From IMG/VR virus record IMGVR_UViG_3300042894_007211: a DNA stretch of 58,080 nucleotides; one strand, written 5' to 3'. Each line of letters opens with the position of its first letter. Within the stretch, counting starts at the first letter, position 1. The stretch is from an uncultured virus (IMG/VR IMGVR_UViG_3300042894_007211) (lineage: Duplodnaviria; Heunggongvirae; Uroviricota; Caudoviricetes). Both the position numbers and the translations under genes were made by a program. Positions 11,281-54,006 of this stretch are shown here, piece by piece. Below the pieces are notes generated by a model that had not been told where the DNA came from, ran no database searches, and was given only the letters and a program-made list of their open reading frames with translations.

Positions 11281-11499
11281 TTATAATCCCAATTCCTTTA
11301 ACTTAATCTCTCTAATCTCTTCTTTACTTAAAGCTACATCAAACCAAATCTCACCATTTAACTCCTGACGTTGCTTTAAATAACACCTCTTACATACCCT
11401 TACATTTAAAGTAATGTGATTTCCAGAACCCAATTTTCCAATATCAATCTTCTCAGTATAGAACTTCCAGTTATGTCTTATCTTACATAATATTTTCAT
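11281..11499 (-). CDS. Small C-tagged protein with Cys/His motif
   Basis: Likely start MKILCKIRH (ATGA overlap); ends IREIKLKELGL. Confidence 0.7.
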   Translation of the reverse strand: MKILCKIRHNWKFYTEKIDIGKLGSGNHITLNVRVCKRCYLKQRQELNGEIWFDVALSKEEIREIKLKELGL

Positions 11500-11783
11500 A
11501 GTATCAAATTTAATTTCATATCTCTTTCTATCTGAATAGTGATATCCCTCAAATAACCTTTGGTAATACATCCAGCAATTGACCATCTGGAACTTGCTGT
11601 CTTAGTCCAATCTAAAGTAAAGATAGCATCATACTCAGAATTATGAATGACTACTTTTGCTCCCGTTGAGTACATATTAATAGGGATAATATCTCCTATC
11701 TTAAACGGATGATGGTAATTGACATCAGTATCTATGTCTATACTTAAATTATCTTTGAGGACTTCTAAATAATAACGTGTCAT
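11496..11783 (-). CDS. Small C-tagged protein
   Basis: Ends IERDMKLNLIL. Confidence 0.7.
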   Translation of the reverse strand: MTRYYLEVLKDNLSIDIDTDVNYHHPFKIGDIIPINMYSTGAKVVIHNSEYDAIFTLDWTKTASSRWSIAGCITKGYLRDITIQIERDMKLNLIL

Positions 11784-11884
11784 TGGAGTATCTGATTTAT
11801 CTTAATATCTCTAAGTAGACAATTACTATGGAGTAACCACTGGGTAAAGTCTTCTTTGAAACAATTTTCGAGTTGATTTGTCAT
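11780..11884 (-). CDS. 34-aa C-tagged microprotein (not in ORF track)
   Basis: MTNQLENCFKEDFTQWLLHSNCLLRDIKINQILQ; ATGA-coupled to next gene. Confidence 0.6.
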   Translation of the reverse strand: MTNQLENCFKEDFTQWLLHSNCLLRDIKINQILQ

Positions 11885-11934
11885 GTATAGATTATATTTA
11901 GGTAGTGAAACAAAGTTTGGCGAGATTTTAATTA

Positions 11935-12192
11935 TACAGAAAAATGAACGGATTTCTGTATATTATAGTGTATTAGATTATACAGAAAAATGGTCAATTT
12001 TTTGTATCTAATATTTAGACTTTTGGGTCGGAAAGAGTGTGTAGAAATCCGGTTTTATTTCTGTAATCGGTTGGCAAAATGGTCGGATTTAATACAAAAA
12101 AATGTATGAAATTCTGTATAGGGTAAAAGTAAGATTACAGAAATCTGAACGGAACTTTGTATATCATACAGAAATATGGTTGTTTTTCTGTA
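11935..12192. repeat. Cluster of six 26-bp quasi-palindromes TACA(G/A)AAA..N6..TTT(C/T)TGTA
   Basis: Copies at 11935, 11981, 12040 (degenerate), 12093, 12136, 12167. Confidence 0.9.
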
Positions 12193-12331
12193 GAAATATG
12201 TGTTAGTTCTATGTCGATTTTAAAAATCTTATTTGAAACTCTTTTTTCGTATGTAAAAGTATATACGAGCAACTCATCGTTTAAACTCTCTCTCACTGAC
12301 AACTAATCGTCACATCTTTACTACAAATTTT

Positions 12332-12970
12332 ATGTCAGAATTAATCGAACCAAATCCACTTCTTATAGAGTATTATATCAAGGCTCAGCAGCTCACCGCC
12401 GAACTTTGCTTAGACGTTAGTGACCATAAATCTTTAGGTGAGTGGCATTATATTGAATCAAATATTGAGTATAATATTTTGTTATTACAGAGGCTTTCAG
12501 AGCTTGGCTTACTTCCGCTATCACCGATTAAGATATGTGATTGTGGTGTAGGTTTAGCAACTATTATGTATGATTTTTACTTACAGTCTAAAGAGTTCAA
12601 TTACAAGTTTGAGTTTTTCGGAGTTGAGAGGTATCAGCCTTATATAGATGCTTTTGAAGGGGAATTAAGAACTTACTGGAATAATGATTTGCAGATGATT
12701 TCAGACGATTTGATGGATCATAACTATAGTCGGTATAACTTTATATGGATATTCACTCCTTATAGTCAGAGTGACAAGTTAATGAAGTTTTTTGAAAAGG
12801 TTATATTGGAGATGCCACCCGGAGGTATTGTATTTGGATTAGACCATTATCGTATAATGACGTATGGTGGAGATGAGTTGAAGAAGGAGTTTATGAAATT
12901 AGAGGCTCATAAGGTGGATGAATTGTGGTGTTTCAAAAAGGTTCAAAGGGGCAGTGTCTACAACCACTGA
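12332..12970 (+). CDS. SAM-dependent methyltransferase-like protein
   Basis: ICDCGVGLA motif I, FGVE, IFTPY, MPPGG. Confidence 0.7.
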   Translation: MSELIEPNPLLIEYYIKAQQLTAELCLDVSDHKSLGEWHYIESNIEYNILLLQRLSELGLLPLSPIKICDCGVGLATIMYDFYLQSKEFNYKFEFFGVERYQPYIDAFEGELRTYWNNDLQMISDDLMDHNYSRYNFIWIFTPYSQSDKLMKFFEKVILEMPPGGIVFGLDHYRIMTYGGDELKKEFMKLEAHKVDELWCFKKVQRGSVYNH

Positions 12971-13040
12971 CGCAGCACTTGCCACGTTTAATATGATATC
13001 TTTCGGCAAGGACAATAGCCTCCTTTTCTAGTTTCTTCAT
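12933..13040 (-). CDS. DUF5522-like Cys-rich microprotein or remnant
   Basis: MKKLEKEAIVLAERYHIKRGKCCVSGCRHCPFEPF. Confidence 0.5.
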   Translation of the reverse strand: MKKLEKEAIVLAERYHIKRGKCCVSGCRHCPFEPF

Positions 13041-13158
13041 CTAAAACATAATCCCAATAATAGTGAGCTTTACCACAGTTTGAACAATCACCAACTTGAT
13101 AATCTTCACTTATGAAGAATTTATGATTACATTTCGGACATTCTAATTCGTGTTCCAT
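12988..13158 (-). CDS. 56-aa zinc-ribbon protein
   Basis: MEHELECPKC...CSNC. Confidence 0.55.
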   Translation of the reverse strand: MEHELECPKCNHKFFISEDYQVGDCSNCGKAHYYWDYVLDEETRKGGYCPCRKISY

Positions 13159-13181
13159 AATAACTGTTTATATTTGTGAAC

Positions 13182-13587: not shown

Positions 13588-13613
13588 TCATTCCCATTCG
13601 ACCTTCCTTTAGA

Positions 13614-13680
13614 TACAGAAAAACGTGCAGAATTTTGTATATTAATTTAATAAATACAAAAAAATGAACGGATTTCTGTA
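13614..13680. repeat. Two 26-bp quasi-palindromes
   Basis: TACAGAAAAACGTGCAGAATTTTGTA and TACAAAAAAATGAACGGATTTCTGTA. Confidence 0.9.
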
Positions 13681-13801: not shown

Positions 13802-14146
13802 ATGGATGTAGAAAAAGATTACATTTTTGTTTATGGTTTATTCAGGGACCAATCGAGGCCGCTGCTTGGAAAAGCTACATACTGTGGTAAATCGTTTATT
13901 TCAGGTAAGTTATATAAAGTAGATGAATTTTATCCTGGTTTAGTTCAGGGTAGTGTTGGAAAGGTGTGGGGAGATGTTTATCTTTTTGATACTAGTTTAC
14001 TCGAAGAGATGGATATCTATGAAGGAAGTGAATATAAGAGGGTTCGTGTTAGGACTGCTTCAGATATAGAGTGTTGGGTTTATGAGTATTGTCAGGATGT
14101 GTCTGGTTTTGTTGAGATAAAGTCAGGAGATTGGCATTTAAGGTAA
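13802..14146 (+). CDS. Gamma-glutamylcyclotransferase (AIG2-like)
   Basis: FVYG..., YPGL, VWGDVY, DIYEG, YKRV. Confidence 0.85.
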   Translation: MDVEKDYIFVYGLFRDQSRPLLGKATYCGKSFISGKLYKVDEFYPGLVQGSVGKVWGDVYLFDTSLLEEMDIYEGSEYKRVRVRTASDIECWVYEYCQDVSGFVEIKSGDWHLR

Positions 14147-14204
14147 ACCTTTGGGGTAGGTTGGAGTATACTCGCTCCCACCTGTTGTTGATGTTAGTAA
14201 CTTT

Positions 14205-14245
14205 ATTCTTACTACAAAGATATGGATTATTTTTAAATTGACAAA
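14205..14245 (-). promoter_or_regulatory. Full Bacteroidetes-type promoter (TTTG-19 nt-TATCTTTG) with no downstream ORF
   Basis: Closely matches the promoter at 17471-17511. Confidence 0.65.
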
Positions 14246-14264
14246 AAAAGTGCAGATTTTTGTA
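14239..14264. repeat. 26-bp quasi-palindrome
   Basis: TGACAAAAAAAGTGCAGATTTTTGTA. Confidence 0.75.
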
Positions 14265-14272
14265 TAAAAGTT

Positions 14273-14728
14273 ATGAAGATATTTTGTTATGGTTCTAATA
14301 TGAGTTCTGAAAGAATAACTGAGAGGTGTTCTTCTTCGCGTTTTATAGCAATAGCTAGTGTTAGGGGTTGGAAGTTACTATTTAATAAAAAGAGTAAAGA
14401 TGGTTCTGGTAAGGCTAATTTAGTTTGTACAGGTGATGGAAGTTTAGTATGGGGTGTTATATTTGATATATCAGAGGATCAGAAGCCGATATTGGATAAG
14501 TTTGAGGGTTTGGGTAAGGGATATGATGAATTGAAATTGCTAGTTATAAGTGATTTAGGTGAAGAGGTTGAGTGTATTAGTTATATAGCAACTGATGATA
14601 AGTATTTAGAAAAGAGTTTAAAGCCACATGAGTGGTATAAGGAGTGGTGTTTGGTGGGTGCTAGGGAGCATAATATACCTGGAGATTATATTTTAATGAT
14701 AGAGGGTGTGGGTGTTACAGAAAAATGA
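14273..14728 (+). CDS. Gamma-glutamylcyclotransferase family protein
   Basis: FCYGSNM, VWGV, LDKFEG motifs. Confidence 0.85.
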   Translation: MKIFCYGSNMSSERITERCSSSRFIAIASVRGWKLLFNKKSKDGSGKANLVCTGDGSLVWGVIFDISEDQKPILDKFEGLGKGYDELKLLVISDLGEEVECISYIATDDKYLEKSLKPHEWYKEWCLVGAREHNIPGDYILMIEGVGVTEK

Positions 14729-15716: not shown

Positions 15717-15718
15717 AG

Positions 15719-22818: not shown

Positions 22819-23685
22819 TTAAATTATATCTGATATATCAAAAAGTATATCACCTGGTCTTATAGGACACTCCATAACTTCTCCTGTAAAACTATAATCA
22901 AAAAGATAAGAATTAGCAAGTTTGTTATCACCTGGTAGTTTAGCCACAATATTTTTATGAATATCATATCCAAACAGTTTAGGAGATGTTGCTATCCATA
23001 AAACAGTAGATTCGAGGCCTAAGGCAGCTGCTGCATGTTGAAGTGACGAATCTATTAGAATTCTTTTATCAGCTACAGCAAGTAAGTAAAATAACTCTAA
23101 ATTAGCCAGTGGTTGCCAAATTGATTCAACACCTGGTATAGCATTAGCCTCAGTTTTACATATTTGTATAATATGATGTGTTTCTTTATAGATTTCAATT
23201 ATTTGACTGGTGATACCCTGAGGTAGGTCTCTTGCCCAACTATAAAGTGGTCCGTTTTCTAAAAGTCCTCCATTAGTTTGGAGTACTAAAATTGGTTTTT
23301 CTCTTTTCCACATCTTTTCACCAATCTGTAGCTGTCTTAGATTAAATTGCAATTCGGGTAATTCACCAGAATATGTTAATCCGTATAACTTACACCAATT
23401 TTCAATTAAGGGCATTTCGCCATTTATATGTTCAGATGTGAAATAAGGTTCGTGTTTAAAAATTAGAGACTTTCCACCTTCTATATAATCCTGATAGAAA
23501 TAAGGAGTGTTTCCAACAGCAAACACTCTATCAACAAAATCTAAACCTAGAAATATTTGTGGATATGAACAAACCACTATTAATTTTAAATTAGGGTAGT
23601 TATTTTTAATACATTTAGCAACTGCCGTAGCTGCTACGTTTTTTCCTAAACCCCCTTCAATGTGAAATACTGTAAACTGTTTCAT
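22819..23685 (-). CDS. Glycosyltransferase (GT9/heptosyltransferase-like)
   Basis: GGLGK N-terminus; LIDSSLQHAAAALG. Confidence 0.75.
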   Translation of the reverse strand: MKQFTVFHIEGGLGKNVAATAVAKCIKNNYPNLKLIVVCSYPQIFLGLDFVDRVFAVGNTPYFYQDYIEGGKSLIFKHEPYFTSEHINGEMPLIENWCKLYGLTYSGELPELQFNLRQLQIGEKMWKREKPILVLQTNGGLLENGPLYSWARDLPQGITSQIIEIYKETHHIIQICKTEANAIPGVESIWQPLANLELFYLLAVADKRILIDSSLQHAAAALGLESTVLWIATSPKLFGYDIHKNIVAKLPGDNKLANSYLFDYSFTGEVMECPIRPGDILFDISDII

Positions 23686-24503
23686 ATTTTATATCCAAAT
23701 TTTTCATAGAACCAAGTAAAGTTATTGACGATGATATCACAATTTGCTTTTCCTAATACATCTAAAAAGTCTTCTTTTACTGGCTCAACTTTTCCTCTAA
23801 TCTCGTGGTCTCCAAATATTCCGTGAATTACATCATTTTCATATGTTAACTGCTCAACATTCTTAAAATCATGTTTGTAGTAGGGAAGACCAATATAATT
23901 ATACAGCTTTTTCATTTCTTTGTCTGGGTTCTTACAAAAGTCTTCAAACTTAATAAAAAGAACTTTATCATCATTTTTCTGTGTGATGAGGTCTTTAAGC
24001 CATTCAATACTTGGACCAACTGGTGGACTTACTGAAAAGTGGACCATTCTAGAATCTGTTGTCATGTTTTTAAGTTCGGCTACATTTACAATAAGAGGAT
24101 CTTTATGTGCGTTTTTTCTAAAGTTCTTTTCCATTGAAGCAAAAATAGATCTAAGGTCTCTAACCATTACTACAATTTTTGGCTCATCTACAACAAACTT
24201 TAAGAAGTTATAGTGACCAATCCAAGCTCTACTTTTATCAAATACATACGGTCTATCTGTGATAGCATCAAAAAACCCATAAAGACCTGACTCACAAAAA
24301 CACTGAAATCCTTTTTTCATATCTTCTTGATCCTGGGCTTTAAAAGCATCACCTGTTGAATAGATAGTTCTAGCAGTCAGAAGGAATTCAATAACACCTG
24401 AAGTTGGTGTTGAATAGATTTCGGGATTTTGCATAAGTATATTTTGTAAGAGTGTTGATCCGGATCTTGGAAATGAAGCGTTATAGAATATTTCTTTAAC
24501 CAT
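23682..24503 (-). CDS. Sulfotransferase
   Basis: PRSGSTLL (5'-PSB) and VRDLRSIFAS (3'-PB). Confidence 0.88.
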   Translation of the reverse strand: MVKEIFYNASFPRSGSTLLQNILMQNPEIYSTPTSGVIEFLLTARTIYSTGDAFKAQDQEDMKKGFQCFCESGLYGFFDAITDRPYVFDKSRAWIGHYNFLKFVVDEPKIVVMVRDLRSIFASMEKNFRKNAHKDPLIVNVAELKNMTTDSRMVHFSVSPPVGPSIEWLKDLITQKNDDKVLFIKFEDFCKNPDKEMKKLYNYIGLPYYKHDFKNVEQLTYENDVIHGIFGDHEIRGKVEPVKEDFLDVLGKANCDIIVNNFTWFYEKFGYKI

Positions 24504-28324: not shown

Positions 28325-28678
28325 ATGGAAACTTTAGATAAAGATTGGTGTTATTATTCTGGTATGCCGTCACCTAATGCCTACAAACTATCACTAAGAG
28401 ATTGTTTTAATGAAGACTTTACTGAGTGGTTAGAAAATAGTAATTATATCGGTGATATAAACCCTGATGCTGAATATGGGGTATTAAAAGATATATTAGA
28501 TATCTTACTTATTCACCCAGAAGCTGATTACTTTTGGTATGGATATCCAGAGCATGGTGGTGGGTTATCTTATTCATTACCTCATCACGATACAGTTCCA
28601 GGTGGTGCCTTAAGAGTAGATAAAGATAAAATAAAAGTTTTCTTAAGAGATATAAAATTAGATAATATATTAAATTAA
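28325..28678 (+). CDS. C-tagged hypothetical protein
   Basis: Ends FLRDIKLDNILN. Confidence 0.7.
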   Translation: METLDKDWCYYSGMPSPNAYKLSLRDCFNEDFTEWLENSNYIGDINPDAEYGVLKDILDILLIHPEADYFWYGYPEHGGGLSYSLPHHDTVPGGALRVDKDKIKVFLRDIKLDNILN

Positions 28679-31148: not shown

Positions 31149-31842
31149 TAAACTTTTAACAGGGCTTTTTTTAATACTATTAATCTTTGGAGCAAAATCT
31201 CAATCAAATAAAAAACTTTATGAGTTATCTATGATTAACTCTCATAGACCTGATAGTTCTAAAATCTATTACGATTTAGTTGAAATTAATCATCTTAACA
31301 CTAATCTTATCAGAAAGACTATTAATTCAGAAGAATATATCTTAGTGTGTACTTGGAAACAAAATGTCAGTTTCTATCAAAAAGATACTATTTTTAATAC
31401 CGGGAGTTATAACATATGGGTCACAACGGCTCCTGAACTAAAGAAAAGAATTAAATTTGAATCTCCTAAAGATACTAACTTAAGACTACTTCAGTTACTT
31501 GGTCTACCACCAACATCTAAATACTCTTACTTTGTTGAGTTTTGGGTAAGACCTCAGGATCTTTTTAGACCGTGTCCGGATAGAGAAATTTGGGATGGTA
31601 ATTGTGACCTTTGTTTTCCACAAGGCACACCACAGGATCACATTAATTGGATAAATGAAAATCGAATTTCAAGATACTATCAATGTGACCTTTACAATCA
31701 ATATCCGTGGGGTCAATTAGGATACACTTGGGATTGGAATCCAGATAACAAATCACATGTTGGTTTAAGTGAGTTTATTATTACAACTGGCGCAACTATT
31801 TACGTCAATAAGATAGTGACTACATCTGAGTATTTAAAGTAG
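31141..31842 (+). CDS. Secreted hypothetical protein
   Basis: Signal peptide; LLGLPP, LFRPC, YPWGQLGYTWDW. Confidence 0.7.
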   Translation: MNNKLLTGLFLILLIFGAKSQSNKKLYELSMINSHRPDSSKIYYDLVEINHLNTNLIRKTINSEEYILVCTWKQNVSFYQKDTIFNTGSYNIWVTTAPELKKRIKFESPKDTNLRLLQLLGLPPTSKYSYFVEFWVRPQDLFRPCPDREIWDGNCDLCFPQGTPQDHINWINENRISRYYQCDLYNQYPWGQLGYTWDWNPDNKSHVGLSEFIITTGATIYVNKIVTTSEYLK

Positions 31843-32292
31843 TTGATTTAATTTAATTTCTCTTTTCCATTCTTTTAGGTCATACTTAGTTCTATCCATA
31901 TTATAACCTGTCATAAAATTATCATGATGAAAATGATGGTGCATATTATGGATTAAAGATTCAATCTCTTTATCAATTTCTTCTTCAGTTTCTTCTCCAG
32001 TAAATCCTCTGAAGATATTATAAGTAATTGGTCTATCTCCATTTTGATGTATTTGATCCCCACAACTCAATTCAATTTTCCATAGATGACCACATTCCCA
32101 ATACCTACTATCCATAGAGCGGGTAAGAAAGAAAAGACCTTCGGCATCTCTTTCACTAGAATGAAAAAAAATATATAATCCACCCCATCCAGATTTAATC
32201 TTAGTAAATGAATTTGACAGATTATTGCCTGTTACTTCAATACCTGGAAGTGCTTCTATTGTTTCGGTAAGTTGTTTATATAAGTCTTTCAT
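31834..32292 (-). CDS. C-tagged hypothetical protein
   Basis: Ends WKREIKLNQLL. Confidence 0.75.
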   Translation of the reverse strand: MKDLYKQLTETIEALPGIEVTGNNLSNSFTKIKSGWGGLYIFFHSSERDAEGLFFLTRSMDSRYWECGHLWKIELSCGDQIHQNGDRPITYNIFRGFTGEETEEEIDKEIESLIHNMHHHFHHDNFMTGYNMDRTKYDLKEWKREIKLNQLL

Positions 32293-32579
32293 ATTCCTAA
32301 TTCTTTTAGTTTCTCTTCTCTTTCGAGTTGTGTTTTAAATGGTTCTAGTAATCCAAAGTCATTTTCTTCCCAATTATATGACGATTCATCCATTTGTGGA
32401 TTAATAGAAAGAACTTGTAATTCATAACACATCAAATTAAAGAAATGGTCAACATCTGCTTGTCTTAAATTAAAGTGTTCTACAAAATCACTACCAGGTA
32501 AATGTGGTGGAATATATCCAGGTCTTGAATTCTTTCTAAATAACTGTATACAATCTTCTACTAAATAAGTTTCACTCAT
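32289..32579 (-). CDS. C-tagged hypothetical protein
   Basis: Ends LEREEKLKELGI. Confidence 0.75.
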   Translation of the reverse strand: MSETYLVEDCIQLFRKNSRPGYIPPHLPGSDFVEHFNLRQADVDHFFNLMCYELQVLSINPQMDESSYNWEENDFGLLEPFKTQLEREEKLKELGI

Positions 32580-32806
32580 ATTCCTAGTTCTTTTAATTTC
32601 AATTCTCTCAAAGATTGTTTATGTAATTCTAACTTACCCTCAGGTACCCAATGATTTATTAAATCCAATTCATCATTCTTTATTAGATACCACGTCTGAC
32701 CTCGTTGAGAAAGCCCAGGTTTTAAATTTTGTTCATCGTATTTTATTACTATACCATGATGATGAGAGCCAATCTCTTGTAAATGGTCACCTATATTAAA
32801 TTTCAT
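32576..32806 (-). CDS. C-tagged SH3-like small protein
   Basis: MKFNIGD...; ends LRELKLKELGI. Confidence 0.75.
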   Translation of the reverse strand: MKFNIGDHLQEIGSHHHGIVIKYDEQNLKPGLSQRGQTWYLIKNDELDLINHWVPEGKLELHKQSLRELKLKELGI

Positions 32807-33003
32807 ATTCCTAAATCATTTAATTTTTTATCTCTTATTTCACTAACTACATCAAAATTCCAATAGCAAAAAAGAGTATTGAACCCTTTGAGTTTATAAT
32901 AAAACTGATTATCAACACATTCAATATCTTCTACAAAGTAAGTCTTGTCAATGCTAAGAAGACCACCTCTCTCGGTGGTATTATCTTTACAAACAACAAG
33001 CAT
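32803..33003 (-). CDS. C-tagged small protein
   Basis: Ends IRDKKLNDLGI. Confidence 0.75.
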   Translation of the reverse strand: MLVVCKDNTTERGGLLSIDKTYFVEDIECVDNQFYYKLKGFNTLFCYWNFDVVSEIRDKKLNDLGI

Positions 33004-34863: not shown

Positions 34864-35085
34864 TCATATTCCTAATTTTTGTAGTCTTTGTTCTCTTAAA
34901 TTACTTACCATATCAACTTCGTCTAAATTAACCCAAGTCATACAATCTTCAGCATTCTTTATGTGATAACGAGTTTTTCTGTGTTTGTTACTATACTTTT
35001 GTACTTCTGTGATCACACAATTTCCCTTAATGAATTCATTAAGAAAGTGTTCTGGTTTTAATTTAACTATATCTCCTACTCTCAT
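34864..35085 (-). CDS. C-tagged SH3/KOW-like small protein
   Basis: MRVGDIVKL; ends LREQRLQKLGI. Confidence 0.75.
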   Translation of the reverse strand: MRVGDIVKLKPEHFLNEFIKGNCVITEVQKYSNKHRKTRYHIKNAEDCMTWVNLDEVDMVSNLREQRLQKLGI

Positions 35086-37120: not shown

Positions 37121-37399
37121 ATGACACCAAATGAAATAATAAAAATTTGTCCTGGTATTGAAAAAATAACATTGGATGCTTATGGTGAATTTTTAGGCAA
37201 TGATTTCAATCCAAATAAAACTTGGAAAGAAATGGGACTAGATGATTTAGATGTTATCGAAATGATAATGAAACTCGAGAAAAAGTATGACTTTGAATTT
37301 CCAGATTATTTAATAGATGAGGTATTTGGTGAAAATATGAAACCAATCAACTTTATTAGTGTAGTAAGACAAAATAAATTAAACGACTTAGGAATTTAA
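37121..37399 (+). CDS. Acyl-carrier-protein-like protein, Ser-to-Asp, with C-terminal tag
   Basis: EMGLDDLDVIEMIMKLEKKYDFEFPD; ends VRQNKLNDLGI. Confidence 0.75.
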   Translation: MTPNEIIKICPGIEKITLDAYGEFLGNDFNPNKTWKEMGLDDLDVIEMIMKLEKKYDFEFPDYLIDEVFGENMKPINFISVVRQNKLNDLGI

Positions 37400-41615: not shown

Positions 41616-41834
41616 TTAATCGAGCAACTTTCTTAATTTATCGTCTCTTAAGTCTTTTATAATTATATCTTTTGGTAGTCTATATGATGATCTTTTTCCA
41701 GTAGTATGAAGATAGTAAATTTTCAAGTGGTCACCATCATCTATAAAACCATTATAAGACCATTCTTCAGGAATAGAGCCTTTTGATTTCATAAAATGAA
41801 AATACCTCTCGACGTTTTCTTTGTTGAAAATCAC
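41616..41834 (-). CDS. C-tagged small protein
   Basis: Ends LRDDKLRKLLD. Confidence 0.7.
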   Translation of the reverse strand: MIFNKENVERYFHFMKSKGSIPEEWSYNGFIDDGDHLKIYYLHTTGKRSSYRLPKDIIIKDLRDDKLRKLLD

Positions 41835-44230: not shown

Positions 44231-44659
44231 TTAATCTAAAATCTGATTGATTTTTTCTTCTCGATAACTTGATGTATCCACATCTACTTCGACTACCTCA
44301 TAAAAAGAAACAGTTACCATTTTATAATATTCATTTACTTCATCTTCATTTGCTGATGGATGTAATCTGTTTTCAGTAGATTCCCAGGTGTAGTTTTTCT
44401 TAACTTCACCATACTTTTTAATAAGTGAGTTGTTAAACTCCTCAAATACATCCCACTCGACATTTACACAGTTTTCATATTCATATGCAAAATCAGTAAT
44501 TGAACTTTCTTTATAAGCTTTAATATTTAGTTCTTTCACTTTTTCTTCTGCATCTTTCTTTGAGAAGCAAACAATTTTTGGAGTTCCGCCTTCGGTTTCG
44601 TTATAAATACTATCATCATATTCATAACCTTTTTTCATTACAATATAAGCTTTATTCAT
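44231..44659 (-). CDS. C-tagged hypothetical protein
   Basis: Ends YREEKINQILD. Confidence 0.75.
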   Translation of the reverse strand: MNKAYIVMKKGYEYDDSIYNETEGGTPKIVCFSKKDAEEKVKELNIKAYKESSITDFAYEYENCVNVEWDVFEEFNNSLIKKYGEVKKNYTWESTENRLHPSANEDEVNEYYKMVTVSFYEVVEVDVDTSSYREEKINQILD

Positions 44660-46451
44660 TTGTTTTATTTGTTAATTGATGTTTTACTAATTCTTTATAA
44701 TATTCACAATTTTCTAATAGATAATCATGAGTTCCTTCTGCTAACAATTCGCCTTGCTTAAGAACAAAAATCTTATCACAGTTTTTAACCGTTGAAAGAC
44801 GGTGTGCGATTATAATAGATGTCTTTTCTTTGGAAACGGCATCTATTGATTTTTGAACTACTCTTTCACTTACCGTGTCTAAAGCAGAAGTTGCTTCGTC
44901 AAAGATAAGTATTTCTGGGTTCTTAGCCAAAGCTCTCGCGATACCAATTCGTTGTTTTTCACCACCGGATACTTTAGCTCCACGTTCTCCAACAATGGTG
45001 TCCCAACCATGTTCCAGTTTTTTATAAAAGGCGTCAATACGAGCCATCTTTGATATCTTATTTAACTCTTCATCAGATAGAACCGTTTCGGTTCCATATG
45101 AAATATTATCACGAATACTTTTATCAAATAGATTTACTTCTTGATCCACACTTCCAATTTTCTTTAAGAATGATTTGAGTTCCAAGTCTCTTAAGTTATT
45201 ACCATTGATTAAAATTTCACCACATTGTGGATCAAATGCTCTTCTGACAAGGTTAGCAATTGTTGATTTACCAGAACCACTTTCACCAACAAAGGCAACT
45301 TTTTCACCTTCTTTAATTTTAAAGGATATACCTTTTAAGACCATTTCAGGTTGTAGTTCTTCTTCATCTTTATCATTATGATTTTTCTTTCTAACTGGAT
45401 AACTAAATTCAACATTTTTAAATTCTATATCTCCTGTGAGATTTTCAGAAATTGGATTTTCAATTTCTTCAACATCCGGTTTGATTTCAAGTAGTTCAAA
45501 ATATTTTTCAATGTTTATTTTATCGGTGATAAACTGTTTTTGCATATCAGTTATCATCCAAAGTGATATAATAAAATTTTGAGACCAAGTGAAAATAAGA
45601 AATATCGCACCGGCTGTAATATACCCATTAAATAATAACCAAACTGCAAATAGTATAGTTAAGTATCTAAAACCAGCAGTTCCTATTCTAATAAGTGTTA
45701 ATAAGTTATTACCTGGTATCCAAGTTCTTTGGAAAGCATCTTGATGAACGTCTTGAACATTGTCTAAATCACCTAATGATTTCTTTTCAGCTACTTCATT
45801 TTTAATTAAGAAAACAAAACGGTATAATTCAGAAATAGTTCTAGCTGTTTGGTTTCTAGCATCTCTTACTTCTCTTAATTTAGGTTGTAGATACTTGTTA
45901 AATTTATAAACCGACCATAAGAAAAGAATTGATATTCCTAAATATGAAAATCCAATAACGGAGCTTATGTAGAATAACATAACAATTGAAACAATAAAAT
46001 TGGCAATTGCTGGAAAAAGATGATAAACAAACATCTGAATTTGTCCTTGAACTGAAGTGAACCCAGCTGTTATAATATTTTGTTTAACACCAGAGTGTTC
46101 ATTTATATGTTGGCCATTTGAGAAATTAAAATACTTTGCTATTGAATAATGATTAAGATGATTAGACGCTTTAATATCTAAGTTTCTAATTTCAATATTT
46201 CCTTGAAATCGAATAATGAGTATTCGAATGAGAACTCCAATACCTGCAAATCCTGCAAACATTAAAGCAGTAGACATGTATTGAGGATCATTAGAATGCT
46301 TTTGTATAACATCAAAGATGTTACTTAAAAAGTAGGTACCAACTGCTTCGATAATTGAAGTAAGAAGTATACAAATAAAAATAATTCCGATTGTTTTTCT
46401 AAAGGGCTTAGCGAATTCCCAAATTCGTTTTATTAACGTCCAATTTGTCAT
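44652..46451 (-). CDS. ABC transporter, fused TMD-NBD (ABCB/MsbA-like)
   Basis: TM helices; GESGSGKS; VSGGEKQR; LIFDEATSALD; IAHRL. Confidence 0.93.
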   Translation of the reverse strand: MTNWTLIKRIWEFAKPFRKTIGIIFICILLTSIIEAVGTYFLSNIFDVIQKHSNDPQYMSTALMFAGFAGIGVLIRILIIRFQGNIEIRNLDIKASNHLNHYSIAKYFNFSNGQHINEHSGVKQNIITAGFTSVQGQIQMFVYHLFPAIANFIVSIVMLFYISSVIGFSYLGISILFLWSVYKFNKYLQPKLREVRDARNQTARTISELYRFVFLIKNEVAEKKSLGDLDNVQDVHQDAFQRTWIPGNNLLTLIRIGTAGFRYLTILFAVWLLFNGYITAGAIFLIFTWSQNFIISLWMITDMQKQFITDKINIEKYFELLEIKPDVEEIENPISENLTGDIEFKNVEFSYPVRKKNHNDKDEEELQPEMVLKGISFKIKEGEKVAFVGESGSGKSTIANLVRRAFDPQCGEILINGNNLRDLELKSFLKKIGSVDQEVNLFDKSIRDNISYGTETVLSDEELNKISKMARIDAFYKKLEHGWDTIVGERGAKVSGGEKQRIGIARALAKNPEILIFDEATSALDTVSERVVQKSIDAVSKEKTSIIIAHRLSTVKNCDKIFVLKQGELLAEGTHDYLLENCEYYKELVKHQLTNKTNE

Positions 46452-46826
46452 TTATTCAGGTTTATAGGTTTCACCTTTAATTCGTAAAACAATAACTGGG
46501 TTGTTAGGATCGTTTGTTGTTACAGTTACGCTTTTATTGATGAAACCTGGATTAGCATTATAATATTTTACAGTGATAGAACTACCTGTTCCAGCCGCGA
46601 CAGTTTTTGGAAAATCAGCAACTGTGCAACCACAAGAACCTTTAGCTTCATAAATTTCTAAAACAGAGATACCTCTATTCTTAAACCAAAATTGAGTTAC
46701 TAAGGTATCACCAGTGAATTCAACTCTACCAAAATCGTGATTTAGTTCAGCAAAGTCGACTAGTGATTGCGAATAAGAAGCTAATGAGATTAGTCCAAAA
46801 ACGAATGTTAAAATTAAATTTTTCAT
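46452..46826 (-). CDS. DUF1573 domain protein
   Basis: Signal peptide; FKNRG...SCGCT...TND. Confidence 0.8.
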   Translation of the reverse strand: MKNLILTFVFGLISLASYSQSLVDFAELNHDFGRVEFTGDTLVTQFWFKNRGISVLEIYEAKGSCGCTVADFPKTVAAGTGSSITVKYYNANPGFINKSVTVTTNDPNNPVIVLRIKGETYKPE

Positions 46827-46827
46827 A

Positions 46828-47364
46828 TTACCAATTATTTTTATAAAGTATATAGTTAAATCCTTTAGACCAATAATCTCTATATTCTTTAGTATCTGAT
46901 AAATCATCACCATCATAAATAAAACTTGTGATGATATCTCTTACTTCGGCTACTTCAGTAATTATTGGAATTAATTTATCTGGATTAAATTCTTCTTCTG
47001 TTTCTAAATAGAATGTGAAAAATTCACCTTTCACATAATCTTCAACTGCTAAATAGTCACTTCCTTCAATTCCGCCATCTTTCCACTCTGTATCGACGAA
47101 TCCGCTATCATTTTCCGAATTCCAAACTTCTTCGCCGGTCTCTTCGTTCATCACAGAAATAAAACACTCGCTAAGATAAGCTCCGGTTACCATATGTTCA
47201 GAGGATGAAAAAAGGTCCTCAAATTCTAAATATTCACATATTTCATCATAAGATATGTTGTCTGATTCGACATCATTTTCTTGTAAATAGTTAAATTGTT
47301 CTTCCGTAATTGGGAAAATTGCAATATCGCCGCCTCTTCCACTTAAACTGATTGTATATTTCAT
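46828..47364 (-). CDS. Acidic hypothetical protein (paralog family)
   Basis: MKYTISLSGRG..VKG..FNPDKL. Confidence 0.75.
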   Translation of the reverse strand: MKYTISLSGRGGDIAIFPITEEQFNYLQENDVESDNISYDEICEYLEFEDLFSSSEHMVTGAYLSECFISVMNEETGEEVWNSENDSGFVDTEWKDGGIEGSDYLAVEDYVKGEFFTFYLETEEEFNPDKLIPIITEVAEVRDIITSFIYDGDDLSDTKEYRDYWSKGFNYILYKNNW

Positions 47365-47371
47365 AGCTAAA

Positions 47372-48097
47372 TTATTTAGTAAGTACTTCTCTGTTGTAGT
47401 AATCATCAAAACCTTCAAGCATTTTCTCCATAGAGCTATCACCGATAACCTCATCGATTAAACCAAACTGAAGTGCTTCATGTGAATTGAACCATTTATC
47501 TCTACGAGAAGACTCAATCATTTCCTCAAATGTTTTACCACAGTTTTGTGCTAAAATGTTAAATAAGATATAATTGTATTTGTGTCCTTCAATGTGTGAG
47601 ATTGTTGTGTCCTGAATGTTTCCTTGCATTCCGTGAGAAACTTGGTGTGTCATAACTCGTGAGTTAAGGAGCGAAGAACGCTTTCCTTTTGTTCCTGATG
47701 AAAGAAGAACAGAACCCATTGATGCTGCCATTCCTGTATTGATTGTTTGGATATCCGAATTGATATAGTTCATAACATCAATCATTGATAGTCCTGACTT
47801 AACTGATCCACCTGGACTGTCAATGTGCATTGTAATATCTCGTTTCTCAACTGAATCCAAATACATAAGTTGAGCTTGAACAACTGTTGACATTTGGTCA
47901 TTTACAACACCAGCCACCCAAAGAATTCTATCTCTCATTAATCGTGAGAAGATATCCATTTGTGTTACACGCATTTCTCTTTCTTCTAAGATGTAAGGTG
48001 TCATTGATGCTTCAATTTGTTCCCCATAGTAATTGAGGTTCATTGATGAAATTCCTTCGCTTAGTGCGAATTTTTTAAAATCTTTTCCGTAATCCAT
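47372..48097 (-). CDS. clpP: ATP-dependent Clp protease proteolytic subunit
   Basis: DIFSRLMRDRI, IDSPGGSV, AASMGS, MTHQ, EALQFGLID. Confidence 0.95.
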   Translation of the reverse strand: MDYGKDFKKFALSEGISSMNLNYYGEQIEASMTPYILEEREMRVTQMDIFSRLMRDRILWVAGVVNDQMSTVVQAQLMYLDSVEKRDITMHIDSPGGSVKSGLSMIDVMNYINSDIQTINTGMAASMGSVLLSSGTKGKRSSLLNSRVMTHQVSHGMQGNIQDTTISHIEGHKYNYILFNILAQNCGKTFEEMIESSRRDKWFNSHEALQFGLIDEVIGDSSMEKMLEGFDDYYNREVLTK

Positions 48098-48694: not shown

Positions 48695-48732
48695 ATTGTA
48701 TATATTAAATTTTTTATTATATTTGGCGTAAT

Positions 48733-49071
48733 ATGAGAATTATATCAAATAGTAAGGGTGATTATGTTCAGGTGTTAGAGGAGTTCCTAGGAATAACCTT
48801 AACAACAGAAAATGAAGTTCGGTGGAGTGTTGTTCTTTATCACGGTGAGGTTATGATATTTCATGAGCCCTCAACTAAATTATATACTAAAGATGAATTC
48901 ATTGAGTATAAAGATAATTTAGGATTAGCTCAATGGCGAAGTTCTTCTCTTAAAAAAGATAGAATGAAACTTTTTGATGAGCTCTTAAAATCTCTTATTA
49001 AATTTGAGAGAGAATTAAAAATAGATAAAGTCTTAAGAGATGAAAATGAATATCAATATTGGCTATGTTAA
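48733..49071 (+). CDS. C-tagged hypothetical protein
   Basis: FERELKIDKVL near end; TATATTTG at 48718-48725. Confidence 0.7.
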   Translation: MRIISNSKGDYVQVLEEFLGITLTTENEVRWSVVLYHGEVMIFHEPSTKLYTKDEFIEYKDNLGLAQWRSSSLKKDRMKLFDELLKSLIKFERELKIDKVLRDENEYQYWLC

Positions 49072-49193
49072 ATAACGAATTGAAATACTTTTATGAAAAT
49101 TTGTTAAAGACATCTGGTGTTCCCTTAAAATACTTTGGTGTCAAAAACATTATTAGAATGAATAAAATAAAAAGAATATTTAATGAAAATTGA
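49065..49193 (+). CDS. 42-aa C-tagged microprotein (not in ORF track)
   Basis: MLNNELKYFYENLLKTSGVPLKYFGVKNIIRMNKIKRIFNEN. Confidence 0.55.
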   Translation: MLNNELKYFYENLLKTSGVPLKYFGVKNIIRMNKIKRIFNEN

Positions 49194-49719
49194 TTACAAC
49201 ATAAACAATACTCAGAAAATTAGTTTGGTCTTTTTAAGATGGTATCCAAATGAAAAGAATTTTGAGGAATTAACATCTGATGATTTTTTTTCAATTGATG
49301 ATATCACAGTTTCAGAAAGTGATGGAGTTATTTCCTATTCTCATGTTGAAGAGCGTCAGTTTTATAAAACTATGCCATCAAATTTATCAGAGGTAAATAA
49401 TAAATTCAATTTCATAGTTGAAATTACTTTTGAGAAAGTAAATTACTTTAAGTCAAAAATAGTTACTGGAAACAAAATGCAATCCATTAGACTTATGACT
49501 TATGAAATTTTATCAAAGTATAAAAAGAGTGAGGTCATTGGAGGAACAGATGCTTTAATGAAACTAAATCATCCTAACATAAATGTTGAAAAAACTCACA
49601 CTATGGAGATTAAACCAGTTAAGATTTTAGAGAAGGATTGTGTAGATGGAAAGTATGAATTGAATTTGCTTATTAAAGAGTTTTTAAGAGATAGTAAATT
49701 AGATGATTTAGGAATATGA
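49183..49719 (+). CDS. C-tagged hypothetical protein
   Basis: Ends FLRDSKLDDLGI. Confidence 0.75.
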   Translation: MKIDYNINNTQKISLVFLRWYPNEKNFEELTSDDFFSIDDITVSESDGVISYSHVEERQFYKTMPSNLSEVNNKFNFIVEITFEKVNYFKSKIVTGNKMQSIRLMTYEILSKYKKSEVIGGTDALMKLNHPNINVEKTHTMEIKPVKILEKDCVDGKYELNLLIKEFLRDSKLDDLGI

Positions 49720-50390
49720 AATTATTAAAACAATATATTGATAAGTTACCTAAAGACTTAAAGTTTGATACTTTTGAGTTTATAAAGAAAAATATACTCT
49801 ATCTTAATGAAGATTGTAAAAACGTTCTAATAGAAGATTTAATTAGAATTGATTTTAATAATCTTTATCCCAATATCATTTTAGGTCTTTATAATGAAGG
49901 TCTTATTGATACAAAGTGGGAAAGTGATATCAAACAACTAAAATCATTTTTAGAGAATGTTGATGAATTAAAAAGAACGACTAAAGAACTTATTGGAAAA
50001 CCTTATGATGATTTACAAGATTCTATTCTCAGTTCTTATAAGTCAGGAAGAATTCATGCTAATGGACTTTATGGTAAAATAAAATCACCATTAGTAGTTG
50101 AGTATTTACATCTAATTTATACTGACATAATTGAAAAGTATAAAGATGATATTGTTTATATTGATGTTGATATGATAATATGTAAAAAAGATATTGATAT
50201 TTCTAATATACCTGCGAAATCTGAAATGTCTAAATTAGAATACTTTTATATTGAAAATAAAAACAGATATATTCTTTTTTACAATGGTCAATTAGAAACA
50301 AAAGGTCATAGTAAATTTACTAATATGGATTTACTACAATTGGTCAAAAGTGAGATTAGAACTCGTAGATTAAATAAAATAGGAATATGA
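49716..50390 (+). CDS. Minimal family-B DNA polymerase-like palm/fingers protein with C-tag
   Basis: DFNNLYPNII (A), RIHANGLYG (B), YIDVD (C), NKNRY; ends IRTRRLNKIGI. Confidence 0.7.
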   Translation: MKLLKQYIDKLPKDLKFDTFEFIKKNILYLNEDCKNVLIEDLIRIDFNNLYPNIILGLYNEGLIDTKWESDIKQLKSFLENVDELKRTTKELIGKPYDDLQDSILSSYKSGRIHANGLYGKIKSPLVVEYLHLIYTDIIEKYKDDIVYIDVDMIICKKDIDISNIPAKSEMSKLEYFYIENKNRYILFYNGQLETKGHSKFTNMDLLQLVKSEIRTRRLNKIGI

Positions 50391-50692
50391 TTGAATTTTT
50401 TATAAAAGCTGAGTTAAAATACCATAAAGTAAGGTATAATTTACAATTTTCCGATGAAAAAACATCTGAAATAATTAAATACATCAAAGAAGGTGTTTAT
50501 GCTTTTCAACTTATTTATAATGAAAATCAACAAGTGATTTTAGTTAAACCTTTAGATTGGACTAAAGTTCGGTCAACTTTAGATTGTTGGTCTTATGATG
50601 GTGGAAAATATTTTGGCTATTCATCAATTGAAACCTTAAAATTAGATATACAAAAGATTAGAGAATTAAAATTAGATAGTATATTAACCTAA
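50387..50692 (+). CDS. C-tagged hypothetical protein
   Basis: Ends IRELKLDSILT. Confidence 0.7.
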   Translation: MIEFFIKAELKYHKVRYNLQFSDEKTSEIIKYIKEGVYAFQLIYNENQQVILVKPLDWTKVRSTLDCWSYDGGKYFGYSSIETLKLDIQKIRELKLDSILT

Positions 50693-51796: not shown

Positions 51797-51828
51797 AACT
51801 TAATATAGTTTTTTTTATATATTATTTT

Positions 51829-52080
51829 ATGAAATTTGAATTAGTGATAGAAACAATTAAGAGTATTAAAAAAACTGCAATTGATAAACAGATGTATCAT
51901 TTAGCCGCAAATCTTAGAACAATTGAAAGAGAACTGGAATCTAAATATAAATCTGAAGACCAAGTTGAAGTTTCTCACTTCACGGTTTTACTACAAAGTT
52001 GTTTGATTAGACTTCCAGATGATCAGAGACTTCTTTTAACTCCAATTATTAGAGAGTTAAAATTAAGTCAGTTATTATAA
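51829..52080 (+). CDS. UVR (UvrB/UvrC, ClpC M-like) domain protein with C-tag
   Basis: KKTAIDKQMYHLAANLRTIEREL; ends IIRELKLSQLL. Confidence 0.65.
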   Translation: MKFELVIETIKSIKKTAIDKQMYHLAANLRTIERELESKYKSEDQVEVSHFTVLLQSCLIRLPDDQRLLLTPIIRELKLSQLL

Positions 52081-52102
52081 TTTTCCTTATATTTGCTAAA
52101 TT

Positions 52103-52708
52103 ATGATACCAACTGCATCAGATATAATACTTCATTCAGGACTTCACCCAAAACGCGTGCATAACATTTATGTCTTTGGAAGTCGTGTTTATAAAACCAA
52201 CTCAGATAATTCTGATTGGGATATCATAATGGTCGCAAACAATTCAGTAGAAGCAATTGAGTTGAAATTGGAAAAGTATAACATTCATATTTATACCCCG
52301 GATAAGTTTAAAGAAGATTTAGAGTGGCATCGTATAAACAACTTAGAATGTATTTATGCCCCCACTTGGGCTAAAATTCAAGAGAATATAAAATATGATT
52401 TAGATATAGACTTTCCTAAACTAAGACATGCAACTTCTCATATAAGTTCCAATAGTTGGGTCAAGTGTAAAAAGAAATTAGAAATTGGAGACTATTACAC
52501 TGGAATAAAATCTATTTTTCATTCACTTAGAATTCCGATGTTTGCAACTCAAGTTGCAACTAAAGGAACTATTTATGACTTCGAGGTGGCTAATCCGATT
52601 TGGGAAAAGTTAATAAGTAAAGAATGGACTTGGAAAGAGTTGGACAATGAGTTTAGAGAATTAAGAAATAGTATCCTAACTGAATTTAGAAAGGTGTGTG
52701 AGAAATGA
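52103..52708 (+). CDS. Pol-beta-family nucleotidyltransferase
   Basis: FGSRVY..SDWDI; TATATTTG at 52088-52095. Confidence 0.85.
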   Translation: MIPTASDIILHSGLHPKRVHNIYVFGSRVYKTNSDNSDWDIIMVANNSVEAIELKLEKYNIHIYTPDKFKEDLEWHRINNLECIYAPTWAKIQENIKYDLDIDFPKLRHATSHISSNSWVKCKKKLEIGDYYTGIKSIFHSLRIPMFATQVATKGTIYDFEVANPIWEKLISKEWTWKELDNEFRELRNSILTEFRKVCEK

Positions 52709-52839
52709 ATGAAAAGGAAGTAGAAAAGGCTGTTGAAAAGATGTATCAGAAGTTAAACCCTAAAAGAGGAGCTGCTAGTAGATACTTTAGAAACTATATA
52801 AGAAAAAGAAAAATTAAAAGAATATATGAAACTAAATAA
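52705..52839 (+). CDS. 44-aa tagged microprotein
   Basis: Ends IRKRKIKRIYETK; ATGA-coupled. Confidence 0.55.
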   Translation: MNEKEVEKAVEKMYQKLNPKRGAASRYFRNYIRKRKIKRIYETK

Positions 52840-52957
52840 CATTTCCGGTGGTGTTGATATGTATTATCAATCAACTTTAGTTTATGAGTTAGGTAAAAGA
52901 CTTTTAAGAAAGTCAAATAGAAAAGAAAAAATTAAAAAGTTATTTAATGAACATTAA
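52826..52957 (+). CDS. 43-aa tagged microprotein
   Basis: Ends NRKEKIKKLFNEH. Confidence 0.55.
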   Translation: MKLNNISGGVDMYYQSTLVYELGKRLLRKSNRKEKIKKLFNEH

Positions 52958-53078
52958 GAATTTTGACATAGTTTTAGAGATGCCAATAGGTTTAAATTCA
53001 TTTACACACTCAATGACTATATTTTCATCGAGAAAGAATTTAAGAAAAGAAAAAATTAAAAGAATATGGATGATGTAA
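52947..53078 (+). CDS. 43-aa tagged microprotein
   Basis: Ends LRKEKIKRIWMM. Confidence 0.55.
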   Translation: MNIKNFDIVLEMPIGLNSFTHSMTIFSSRKNLRKEKIKRIWMM

Positions 53079-53269
53079 TAAAAAAGATGTTAGACGAGAT
53101 TTATTTAGATAGAAAGTCTAAGAAATGCGCATTAACAACCGTTGATACATCTTTAGTTAATATGGATTTTGCATCTCTTTATCCTAATCAAATGAAGTGG
53201 TGGAATATAACTCCTGTTCCAGAAAAAGTGATTATAAGAAAAACAAGAATAAAAAGAATATTTCAATAA
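53066..53269 (+). CDS. 67-aa tagged protein carrying PolB motif A
   Basis: MDFASLYPNQMKWWNI; ends IRKTRIKRIFQ. Confidence 0.65.
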   Translation: MDDVIKKMLDEIYLDRKSKKCALTTVDTSLVNMDFASLYPNQMKWWNITPVPEKVIIRKTRIKRIFQ

Positions 53270-53655
53270 TGTATTGTATTTGTTGTAAGAAAAATAATGT
53301 GATTCCTGAGATACACTCTTATACTAAAGAAAGTATGAGAGGTGTGAAAGAGAAAGTTGAAGAAGAAGATATTCTTTGGAAAGATTCTAAAAGACCTGAT
53401 GGTAGTTTAGTTAATGTCAATAATGAAATGATTGACAATGGAATCATACACATAATTGATGCTGGTTATGGATCAACACACGATGGTGATCAATTTGTTA
53501 TTGCTATTTGTGATTATTGTATTAAAGAGAATTTAGAAGATGCAACACTTCTTTATTATGATAGCATGTTTGATCGAGAAGAATATGTTGAAGAAGAAAG
53601 GGAAAAATCTAAACAAAAATATAGAAGAAGAAAGAACTTAGATGGATTAGTCTAA
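53269..53655 (+). CDS. Zn-binding hypothetical protein (start MYCICC)
   Basis: CICC...CDYC; ends RRKNLDGLV. Confidence 0.7.
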   Translation: MYCICCKKNNVIPEIHSYTKESMRGVKEKVEEEDILWKDSKRPDGSLVNVNNEMIDNGIIHIIDAGYGSTHDGDQFVIAICDYCIKENLEDATLLYYDSMFDREEYVEEEREKSKQKYRRRKNLDGLV

Positions 53656-54006
53656 TAGATTATCCAATCTAAGCTCTCTTAAAATTCTAAGTCTATCTTC
53701 TTCTTCTGGAATAAACTTAATTGGATGAACATCTTTTCTATAGTTGCTACCAACATAGTCAACATCTAAATTCCATCCCCAAATATGTTCGATGTATCCG
53801 GTAATTTCAATTAAATTACCCCCTGTGTTTTTCCCAATCAAAATAGATTTTCCACGCATTCCAATTGGATACCATTTTTTAAGTAATTCTAATTGAAAAT
53901 CCTTATCAGTTCTATTCCAACGCATACAATCCAATGGAATTGTGTTTTGTTCAGAATTAAACCGATAAGGCCAGTAATTTAAGTATTTTTTACCGAAGGT
54001 GCTCAT
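53647..54006 (-). CDS. C-tagged hypothetical protein
   Basis: Ends LRELRLDNLLD. Confidence 0.75.
   Translation of the reverse strand: MSTFGKKYLNYWPYRFNSEQNTIPLDCMRWNRTDKDFQLELLKKWYPIGMRGKSILIGKNTGGNLIEITGYIEHIWGWNLDVDYVGSNYRKDVHPIKFIPEEEDRLRILRELRLDNLLD

Follow-up and report, generated by a model that had tools for sequence, protein, structure and literature searches.

Many small proteins of an uncultured virus of the Caudoviricetes (IMG/VR record IMGVR_UViG_3300042894_007211) end in nearly the same short peptide, hereafter the tag. The stretch of DNA analyzed here comprises 58,080 nucleotides and is called the window throughout. The tag sits strictly at the C-terminus, occurs far more often than expected by chance, and is attached to proteins that share little else. 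Our preferred reading, to which we give about even prospects, is that the tag serves early effector proteins of the cytosol as a portable helix for addressing or docking, and that a single partner, probably encoded by the host, reads it.

A strictly C-terminal tag on small proteins

The tag was defined by the regular expression R..[KR][LI]..[LI], applied as a six-frame scan of the window, and was counted where the match lay 1-4 residues before the stop codon of an open reading frame (ORF). The scan returned 42 matches, of which 22 formed the ends of real ORFs (Table 1) and two were spurious off-frame matches near a stop. Seventeen of the tagged ORFs belong to a main type and five to a basic variant (RKxKIKRI[FWY], ORFs of 43-67 aa), and the ending reads Phi-R-[DE]-x-[KR]-[LI]-x-x-[LI]-[GL]-Phi-stop. 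The original prediction, made from the sequence by a model, had counted about 25 such proteins between positions 11281 and 54006; the tag is real and lies at those positions, but the count was a little too large. Of 104 window genes chosen greedily without overlap, 19 (about one in five) are tagged, compared with a mean of 0.10 and a maximum of 2 in 200 residue shuffles, and internal matches numbered 0 where 2.5 were expected. The comparison of terminal with shuffled and internal frequencies, which had been proposed as a check that could overturn the prediction, came out in its favor. G001, a tagged contig of 171 kb, gave 73 tags against 0.34 expected from residue shuffles. The last Leu most often stands at a distance of two residues from the protein end (13 of 19 tags in the window, 43 of 73 in G001).

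An alignment of 106 tags from seven genomes, which lie within 4 residues of the C-terminus by construction, yielded the consensus K(-4) [S/E/Q](-3) E(-2) [I/L](-1) R(0) [D/E](1) x K(3) L(4) [N/K](5) [E/Q](6) [L/I](7) [G/L](8) [I/L](9) stop. Conservation extends to positions outside the regular expression, namely D/E at +1 (92/106), G/L at +8 (91/106) and I/L at -1 (49/106). The logo is hydrophobic at -1, 4, 7 and 8-9 and polar in between, and read as a helical wheel it would place R0, K3, L4, L7 and position 8 on a common helix face. Many copies start with an S/T-x-x-E-like box and finish with L-G-hydrophobic, both of which are classical helix caps. Gly occupies +8 in 68 of 132 tags and is then followed by I, L or V, never by F, and the last residue of tagged proteins varies widely (I, L, V, D, N, K, T, Q, E).

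The proteins that carry the tag were compared with BLAST and phmmer. After removal of the tag, 93 bodies fell into 72 BLAST clusters, with no match among the window bodies, which at the level of BLAST upholds the earlier description of the carriers as otherwise unrelated. Pfam was nearly empty for these proteins: only one of the 22 tagged window proteins matched above the curated cut-off (two more were weak and below it), and 84 of 86 tagged proteins from other genomes had no match. The exceptions were an acyl carrier protein (ACP)-like protein (window 37121-37399), an HGTP_anticodon protein in the small phage G012, and a weak match to DUF6501. A PHROGs search of the tagged proteins gave almost no matches, and the ESM Atlas, queried with the last 25 residues, returned only unnamed clusters with scores of 0.82 or less. 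With matches for just 1 of 22 window and 2 of 86 other tagged proteins, Pfam agrees with the assertion that no described family covers the tag. Full-text literature searches, and a keyword search of PMC9723584, a paper on giant phages of Bacteroidetes from lakes, turned up no description of it.

Tagged proteins are also alike in size and solubility. None exceeds 224 aa, and in G001 proteins of more than 230 aa account for 0 of 73 tagged and 60 of 252 untagged proteins (p=6e-8). They are less hydrophobic than untagged small proteins, and transmembrane-like segments were found in 0 of 15 tagged window proteins and 7 of 74 of G001. At the level of sequence comparison, the tag behaves as a constant C-terminal module on variable, apparently unrelated small bodies. 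As anatomy, this bears out the idea of a variable body joined to a constant docking helix, while the hub and the F-box-like action that had been attached to it are still conjectural.

The ACP-like protein illustrates this anatomy. It matches PF00550 above the cut-off (E 4.5e-6), and its predicted structure (predicted local distance difference test, pLDDT, 92.7) is an ACP-like bundle (TM-score 0.5-0.6) with an extra helix, residues 78-89, that corresponds to the tag. The carrier serine is missing: the phosphopantetheine serine of the DSL motif is replaced by Asp (GLDDLD), invariantly in 13 of 13 homologues. Judging from this replacement, the protein probably cannot be loaded and may be an apo-ACP mimic or decoy. 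The tag is kept in all 13 homologues, and in one of them (P0010) 11 residues are inserted between body and tag, which indicates a tolerant linker. ACP is the one among the proposed mimics of interaction modules that stands; UVR, PolB palm and SH3-like cargoes found no support in Pfam and PDB sequence searches.

The PolB palm candidate was rejected after phmmer against PDB gave no polymerase match and Pfam no match either. As a lead only, a D-F-x-x-L-Y-P-N string, which we liken to motif A of family B DNA polymerases, was seen by eye in the tagged ORFs at 49716-50390 (+) and 53066-53269 (+). In G012, a tagged protein of 124 aa (L026:7651-8025, minus strand) consists of a stand-alone HGTP_anticodon (tRNA anticodon-binding) domain and, going by that domain, may act as a tRNA-binding decoy or adaptor.

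The basic variant occurs in four tandem overlapping tiny ORFs (52705-53269, +) and at 49059-49193 (+); three are kept in G006, a 436-kb IMG/VR record. We liken its strongly basic RKxKIKRI[FWY] ending to membrane-targeting helices such as that of MinD, and membrane targeting by this variant is possible. For the main type, a membrane-targeting helix was rejected, its net charge being near zero and its bodies soluble.

Table 1. Tagged ORFs of the window, with positions of the whole stretch; ATGA marks a start/stop overlap with the next gene
Position	Strand	Length (aa)	C-terminal end	Remarks
11281..11586	-	101	IREIKLKELGL	tag 11281-11316
11496..11783	-	95	ERDMKLNLIL	tag 11496-11528; overlaps the ORF at 11281..11586 in another frame, true start uncertain
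11780..11884	-	34	LRDIKINQILQ	
28325..28678	+	117	LRDIKLDNILN	followed by convergent gene
31834..32292	-	152	KREIKLNQLL	G006 orthologue (52% identity) ends LRKDKLNRLGI
32289..32579	-	96	EREEKLKELGI	ATGA
32576..32806	-	76	LRELKLKELGI	ATGA
32803..33003	-	66	IRDKKLNDLGI	ATGA; orthologue at 48% identity keeps tag
34864..35085	-	73	LREQRLQKLGI	ATGA; operon behind promoter-like site 35788-35817
37121..37399	+	92	VRQNKLNDLGI	ACP-like; tag is helix 78-89 after four-helix ACP core
41616..41834	-	72	LRDDKLRKLLD	
44231..44659	-	142	YREEKINQILD	adjoins ABC transporter gene; K to Q in G006 orthologue
49059..49193	+	44	IRMNKIKRIFNEN	basic variant
49183..49719	+	178	LRDSKLDDLGI	ATGA; operon behind promoter-like site 48696-48725
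49716..50390	+	224	IRTRRLNKIGI	ATGA; largest
50387..50692	+	101	IRELKLDSILT	
51829..52080	+	83	IRELKLSQLL	
52705..52839	+	44	IRKRKIKRIYETK	basic variant; first of four tandem tiny ORFs
52826..52957	+	43	NRKEKIKKLFNEH	basic variant
52947..53078	+	43	LRKEKIKRIWMM	basic variant
53066..53269	+	67	IRKTRIKRIFQ	basic variant
53647..54006	-	119	LRELRLDNLLD	

Conservation of the peptide, spread and genomic position

Selection on the tag acts at the peptide level. Arg is encoded by AGA in 95 cases and by other codons in 11, where genome usage predicts 81.9 AGA, Leu at +4 by TTA (46), CTA (23), CTT (13) and TTG (5), and the usage of GAT/GAC and GAA/GAG equals expectation. The codons for R, D/E, L and I track genome usage, and third codon positions carry little information. 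Skew is confined to the last two codons, where Gly is encoded by GGA (37 against 18.6 expected) and Ile by ATA (39 against 19.8), because 'GGA ATA TGA' forms a start/stop (ATGA) overlap with the next gene. The claim that codons vary and that conservation lies in the peptide holds, synonymous usage otherwise being that of the genome. Across 13 pairs of orthologues from the window and G006, six conserved tag positions showed 42 identical codons, 19 synonymous and 17 non-synonymous changes, the latter by eye mostly D/E, L/I or G/L swaps. The tag is kept in 12 of these pairs, even where body identity is as low as 36%, and the exception is a K to Q change.

The overlap with the following gene leaves its own trace. 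ATGA overlaps are 3-4 times commoner after tagged genes (6/19 in the window, 24/74 in G001) than after untagged ones (11/85 and 20/251, respectively), and all six 'LGI-TGA' ends of the window are of this kind. Gly-type endings are associated with the overlap (28/68 vs 13/64, p=0.014), and 40 of the 68 Gly-type tags occur without it. The 'LGI' ending is a peptide feature, the codon choice and partly the frequency of which are shaped by gene overlap. Since about two thirds of all tags lack the overlap, the tag does not act as a coupling device; 8 of 19 window tags precede a convergent gene or a gap of more than 30 nucleotides.

The tag is spread across phage lineages. The window itself has a G+C content of 29-30% and a phage-like gene content, and no near-DNA match to it was found among the 50,697 phage records searched. 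BLAST finds orthologues for 48 of the 104 window genes within the last 126 kb of G006, and on this ground the window can be assigned to a giant phage. The ClpP of the window shares 72% identity with its counterpart in LR745206.1 (uncultured phage, 634 kb) and about 40-44% with ClpP of Lak megaphages. Tagged genes make up 74/325 in the whole of G001, 28/207 in the last 126 kb of G006, 7/63 in a 41-kb piece of LR745206.1 (loose regular expression) and 0/73 in a 41-kb piece of Lak-B5. Tags also occur in five related small phages of 25.7-36.8 kb, four of them of 31-37 kb and three rated complete: G010 (6/47), G011 (2/56), G012 (4/46), G013 (1/40) and G014 (1/29). These are distant relatives of Nonlabens phage P12024S (portal identity 35%) and represent a lineage unrelated to the tagged giant phages. 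Among cultured phages, P12024S and Flavobacterium phage FL-1 contained 0/56 and 0/80 tagged genes, respectively.

In the host-order genomes searched, the tag occurs at chance level. An exact DNA pattern, which is one codon version of the tag and biased to AT-rich genomes, was found in 21 stretches of IMG/VR viral contigs (23-31% G+C) and nowhere in prokaryote genomes amounting to 596 Gb. When the LGI form was searched with a degenerate pattern, none of five candidate host-like genomes and 1 of 401 genomes of Flavobacteriales matched, about as many as chance would give. The tag is therefore a feature of phages and not of host proteomes, and on the same counts (0 in 596 Gb; 1/401) mimicry of tag-bearing host proteins was rejected. 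A PaaA/PaaC-like fragment of 139 aa in the window (26947-27366, -) was apparently captured from the host in recent times. Its identity of 82-86% to proteins from metagenome-assembled genomes of Crocinitomicaceae and other Flavobacteriales points to a host of the order Flavobacteriales.

The window also carries an unusual load of auxiliary genes (13802-14728, 23682-24503, 36199-36897, 37967-39238, 40150-41568, 44652-46916 and 54003-54866). They comprise two GGACT-type cyclotransferases, a sulfotransferase, a GH16 glycosidase, a tyrosinase-domain protein, an NAD-dependent epimerase, a UvrC-like nuclease (GIY-YIG plus RNase H-like domain) and an ABC exporter adjoining a DUF1573 protein.

The position of the tagged genes suggests early expression by the host RNA polymerase. 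In G001, a 90-kb block of small genes, most of them on the same strand, holds 72 of the 74 tags as well as 13 of 14 host-type promoter-like sites (intergenic, just upstream of a same-strand gene). The Bacteroidota-type promoter pattern TTG-N19-TAnnTTTG occurs nine times in the window against 2.37 expected, a number that none of 100 shuffles reached. Two of the nine sites head operons with five tagged genes, and a promoter-like site of other spacing precedes the ACP-like gene; the earlier claim that several tagged genes lie behind host-type promoters is thus partly supported. In G010 the neighbors of the tagged genes are sigma-factor-like and methyltransferase genes, and portal and terminase lie elsewhere. 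No structural protein called by PHROGs in the window, G010 and the G001 subsets scanned carries the strict tag; the loose regular expression does fit one protein of G012, which belongs to a BLAST cluster that the small phages have in common. PHROGs on the large G001 proteins did not locate the structural module.

A putative docking helix and its competitors

We posit that phages of Flavobacteriales-type hosts append a helix of approximately 12-14 residues, running from the frequent S/T-x-x-E-like start to a Gly or Leu cap, to small, soluble and probably early proteins. The variable body would provide a specific activity or target, and the constant helix would plug all tagged proteins into a single common partner. 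This partner would more likely be a conserved host machine than a phage protein, because two unrelated phage lineages use the same tag. From these patterns we infer a single reader, its host origin, and docking as the purpose, as opposed to degradation or packaging.

The search for a reader shared by small and giant phages (BLAST 1e-4, phmmer 0.01) recovered only two links. One connects a tail-fibre/tail-spike-like window protein (24601-26100, -) with large tail proteins of G011 and G013 (E 7e-42 and 4e-22), and this common tail-spike domain suggests a common receptor or host group. The other is endonuclease VII/HNH-like and joins proteins of G012 and G013 to G001 (E 3.7e-9). With these as the only yield of the two programs, a phage-encoded common reader was not retained as a candidate, and a common reader is more likely host-encoded, or absent.

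ClpP had been named as a possible hub, and the ClpP of the window (47372-48097, -) does have an intact Ser-His-Asp triad. The gene is, however, present in only 5 of 15 tag-bearing records and is missing from the complete 31-37-kb phages as well as from G002 and G007 (both >90% complete and tagged), which excludes phage ClpP as an obligatory hub. ClpP is also encoded in 5 of 5 candidate host-like genomes. The near-complete G004 and G006 each carry a 710-aa ClpC-like unfoldase without Clp_N domain together with 2-3 ClpP copies, and the phage Clp system may be an add-on. In G006 there are three ClpP copies, and the unfoldase (L045:7044-9176, -) keeps the UVR middle motif. A co-fold of window ClpP (three copies, 9-sequence alignment) with the ACP-like tagged protein (13-sequence alignment), run without controls, scored 0.00 against a mark of 0.32 and is uninformative either way.

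Several points weigh against a docking helix with one reader. Some bodies, which were compared by BLAST or phmmer, may be fast-diverged paralogues, and the notion of one common partner is derived from the constancy of the motif. In the predicted ACP-like structure the tag helix is modeled at a pLDDT of about 90 and could pack on its own body instead of staying free. The early timing is read from promoter-like motifs in AT-rich DNA. Finally, the untagged cultured phages P12024S and FL-1 mean that any reader is not used by all phages of Flavobacteriia.

The docking helix can be extended to a broader scheme, which we consider tentative and on the whole doubtful: the tag would be one word of an 'address code' of phages, and a single host machine of conserved type, such as an AAA+ protease or another central hub, would read it. 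Each mini-protein would be a target-specific adaptor or decoy, and the library would be shared by horizontal exchange. If this were true, up to a quarter of the genes of a giant phage would amount to a set of plug-ins for rewiring that one machine, a bacterial counterpart of the viral F-box/PRANC families that is common to unrelated phages of the same hosts.

Degradation is an unlikely alternative, albeit one with several facts on its side. The tag would then be a C-terminal degron or timer through which early proteins are removed by an AAA+ protease, the small phages using that of the host and the giant phages bringing a ClpC-like unfoldase and ClpP. This would fit the strict end position, which suits C-degrons, the intact triad of window ClpP, the Clp sets of G004 and G006, and the ClpP of host-like genomes. 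On the other hand, the terminal residues vary widely, unlike the nonpolar ends of known C-degrons, and G002 and G007 are tagged and more than 90% complete without ClpP. It would also be costly to render up to 23% of the genes unstable, and the conserved helix face with its central Arg resembles a docking surface more than a pore-engaged tail.

We regard it as rather improbable that the tag is a packaging or compartment signal that directs small proteins either to the capsid, to be injected along with the DNA, or to a compartment built by the phage. Tags of that sort are the T4 capsid-targeting sequence, the HK97 protease tail and the encapsulation peptides of encapsulins and microcompartments, and encapsulation peptides are characterized by just such a short amphipathic helix at the end of many unrelated cargo proteins. 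The small size of all tagged proteins would be consistent with packaging, and a shared reader gene would be unneeded where each lineage has its own capsid. Yet the two lineages share no capsid or scaffold detectable by BLAST or phmmer, and the tagged genes lie apart from recognized structural genes and near host-type promoter-like sites, which points to early and not to late expression. Moreover, 74 cargo species on a contig that CheckV rates as 62% complete (G001) would be unprecedented.

Distinctly improbable, in our view, is a tag without any external reader, that is, a module for self-association or stabilization (for instance of early proteins that form hetero-oligomers or condensates) or a cap that aids folding. 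An amphipathic helix with paired charges (R0/D1/K3/E6) and clear capping signals would suit this role, the helix is modeled with high confidence in the ACP-like protein, and the failure to find a shared phage reader would be explained. What speaks against it is the invariant Arg in the middle of the hydrophobic face, the occurrence of the same sequence on folds as unlike as ACP and an anticodon-binding domain, and the location of most tags within 2 residues of the end, which a stabilizing cap would not need. An element acting at the nucleotide or translation level (coupling to the gene that follows, a site of recombination or an influence of the nascent peptide on termination) is very improbable indeed: the commoner ATGA overlap, the GGA/ATA excess and the link of Gly endings to overlap agree with it, but about two thirds of tags are free of the overlap, third positions say little, substitutions follow amino-acid classes and the upstream codons match genome usage.

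A docking helix, if confirmed, would have practical consequences. Giant phages contain hundreds of small orphan genes of undefined role, and a common handle would give a grip on many of them at once. The tag could reveal a machine on which many early phage proteins converge, each tagged body would become a candidate binder of a specific host target, and the tag could serve as a marker for early effector genes in metagenomes of Bacteroidota phages. It is possibly also a portable targeting peptide for Flavobacteriia.

Comparison with known systems

Three known C-terminal or docking motifs were compared with the tag. The sliding-clamp-binding motif (QL[SD]LF, QLxLxL) is an extended peptide, whereas the core consensus R-[DE]-x-K-L-[NK]-[EQ]-L-G-I does not contain the Gln of that motif and shows a helical 3-4 spacing. 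C-degrons of the ssrA type have nonpolar last residues, such as LAA, while tags end in LD, LK, LE, LS, LNE and FNEN besides GI and GL. The ClpP-docking motif [LIV]-G-[FL] is located at a loop tip in Clp ATPases and not at the C-terminus. Its likeness to the tag lies in the 68 of 132 tags that end in [LI]-G-[ILV] and in the presence of ClpP in phage and host alike; about half of the tags, however, have no Gly, and the bias toward GI stems partly from gene overlap.

Two packaging systems share the principle of a short address peptide. The capsid-targeting sequence of T4 (IPI-III, Alt) is likewise common to unrelated phage proteins, but it is N-terminal, cleaved by the prohead protease and found on late packaged proteins. 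The tag is C-terminal throughout (22/22 in the window, 106/106 aligned), present on many more proteins and located in early-looking blocks. Encapsulation or cargo-loading peptides are terminal amphipathic helices of approximately 10-18 residues, joined by a linker to unrelated cargo, and in this the tag resembles them. It differs in its central Arg/Lys pattern and in having no associated shell gene, and no common shell or capsid reader was detectable by BLAST or phmmer between small and giant phages.

Two further systems join a target- or substrate-binding body to a hub. Ankyrin/PRANC proteins of poxviruses carry a C-terminal F-box-like domain of approximately 40 residues that serves the eukaryotic ubiquitin system. 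As in these families, which correspond to the F-box comparison of the original prediction, many viral proteins with variable target-binding bodies share a constant C-terminal module, although the tag comprises approximately 12 residues instead of a folded domain of about 40, and its hub is a proposed one. The XB peptide, located at the C-terminus of one adaptor family (SspB), docks on the zinc-binding N-domain of ClpX, to which it binds as a strand. The tag has helix signatures and occurs on dozens of unrelated bodies. Like the XB tether, it is a peptide at the extreme C-terminus behind a tolerant linker that would join the body to one hub, and its Phi-R-x-x-K start resembles the LRVVK of SspB.

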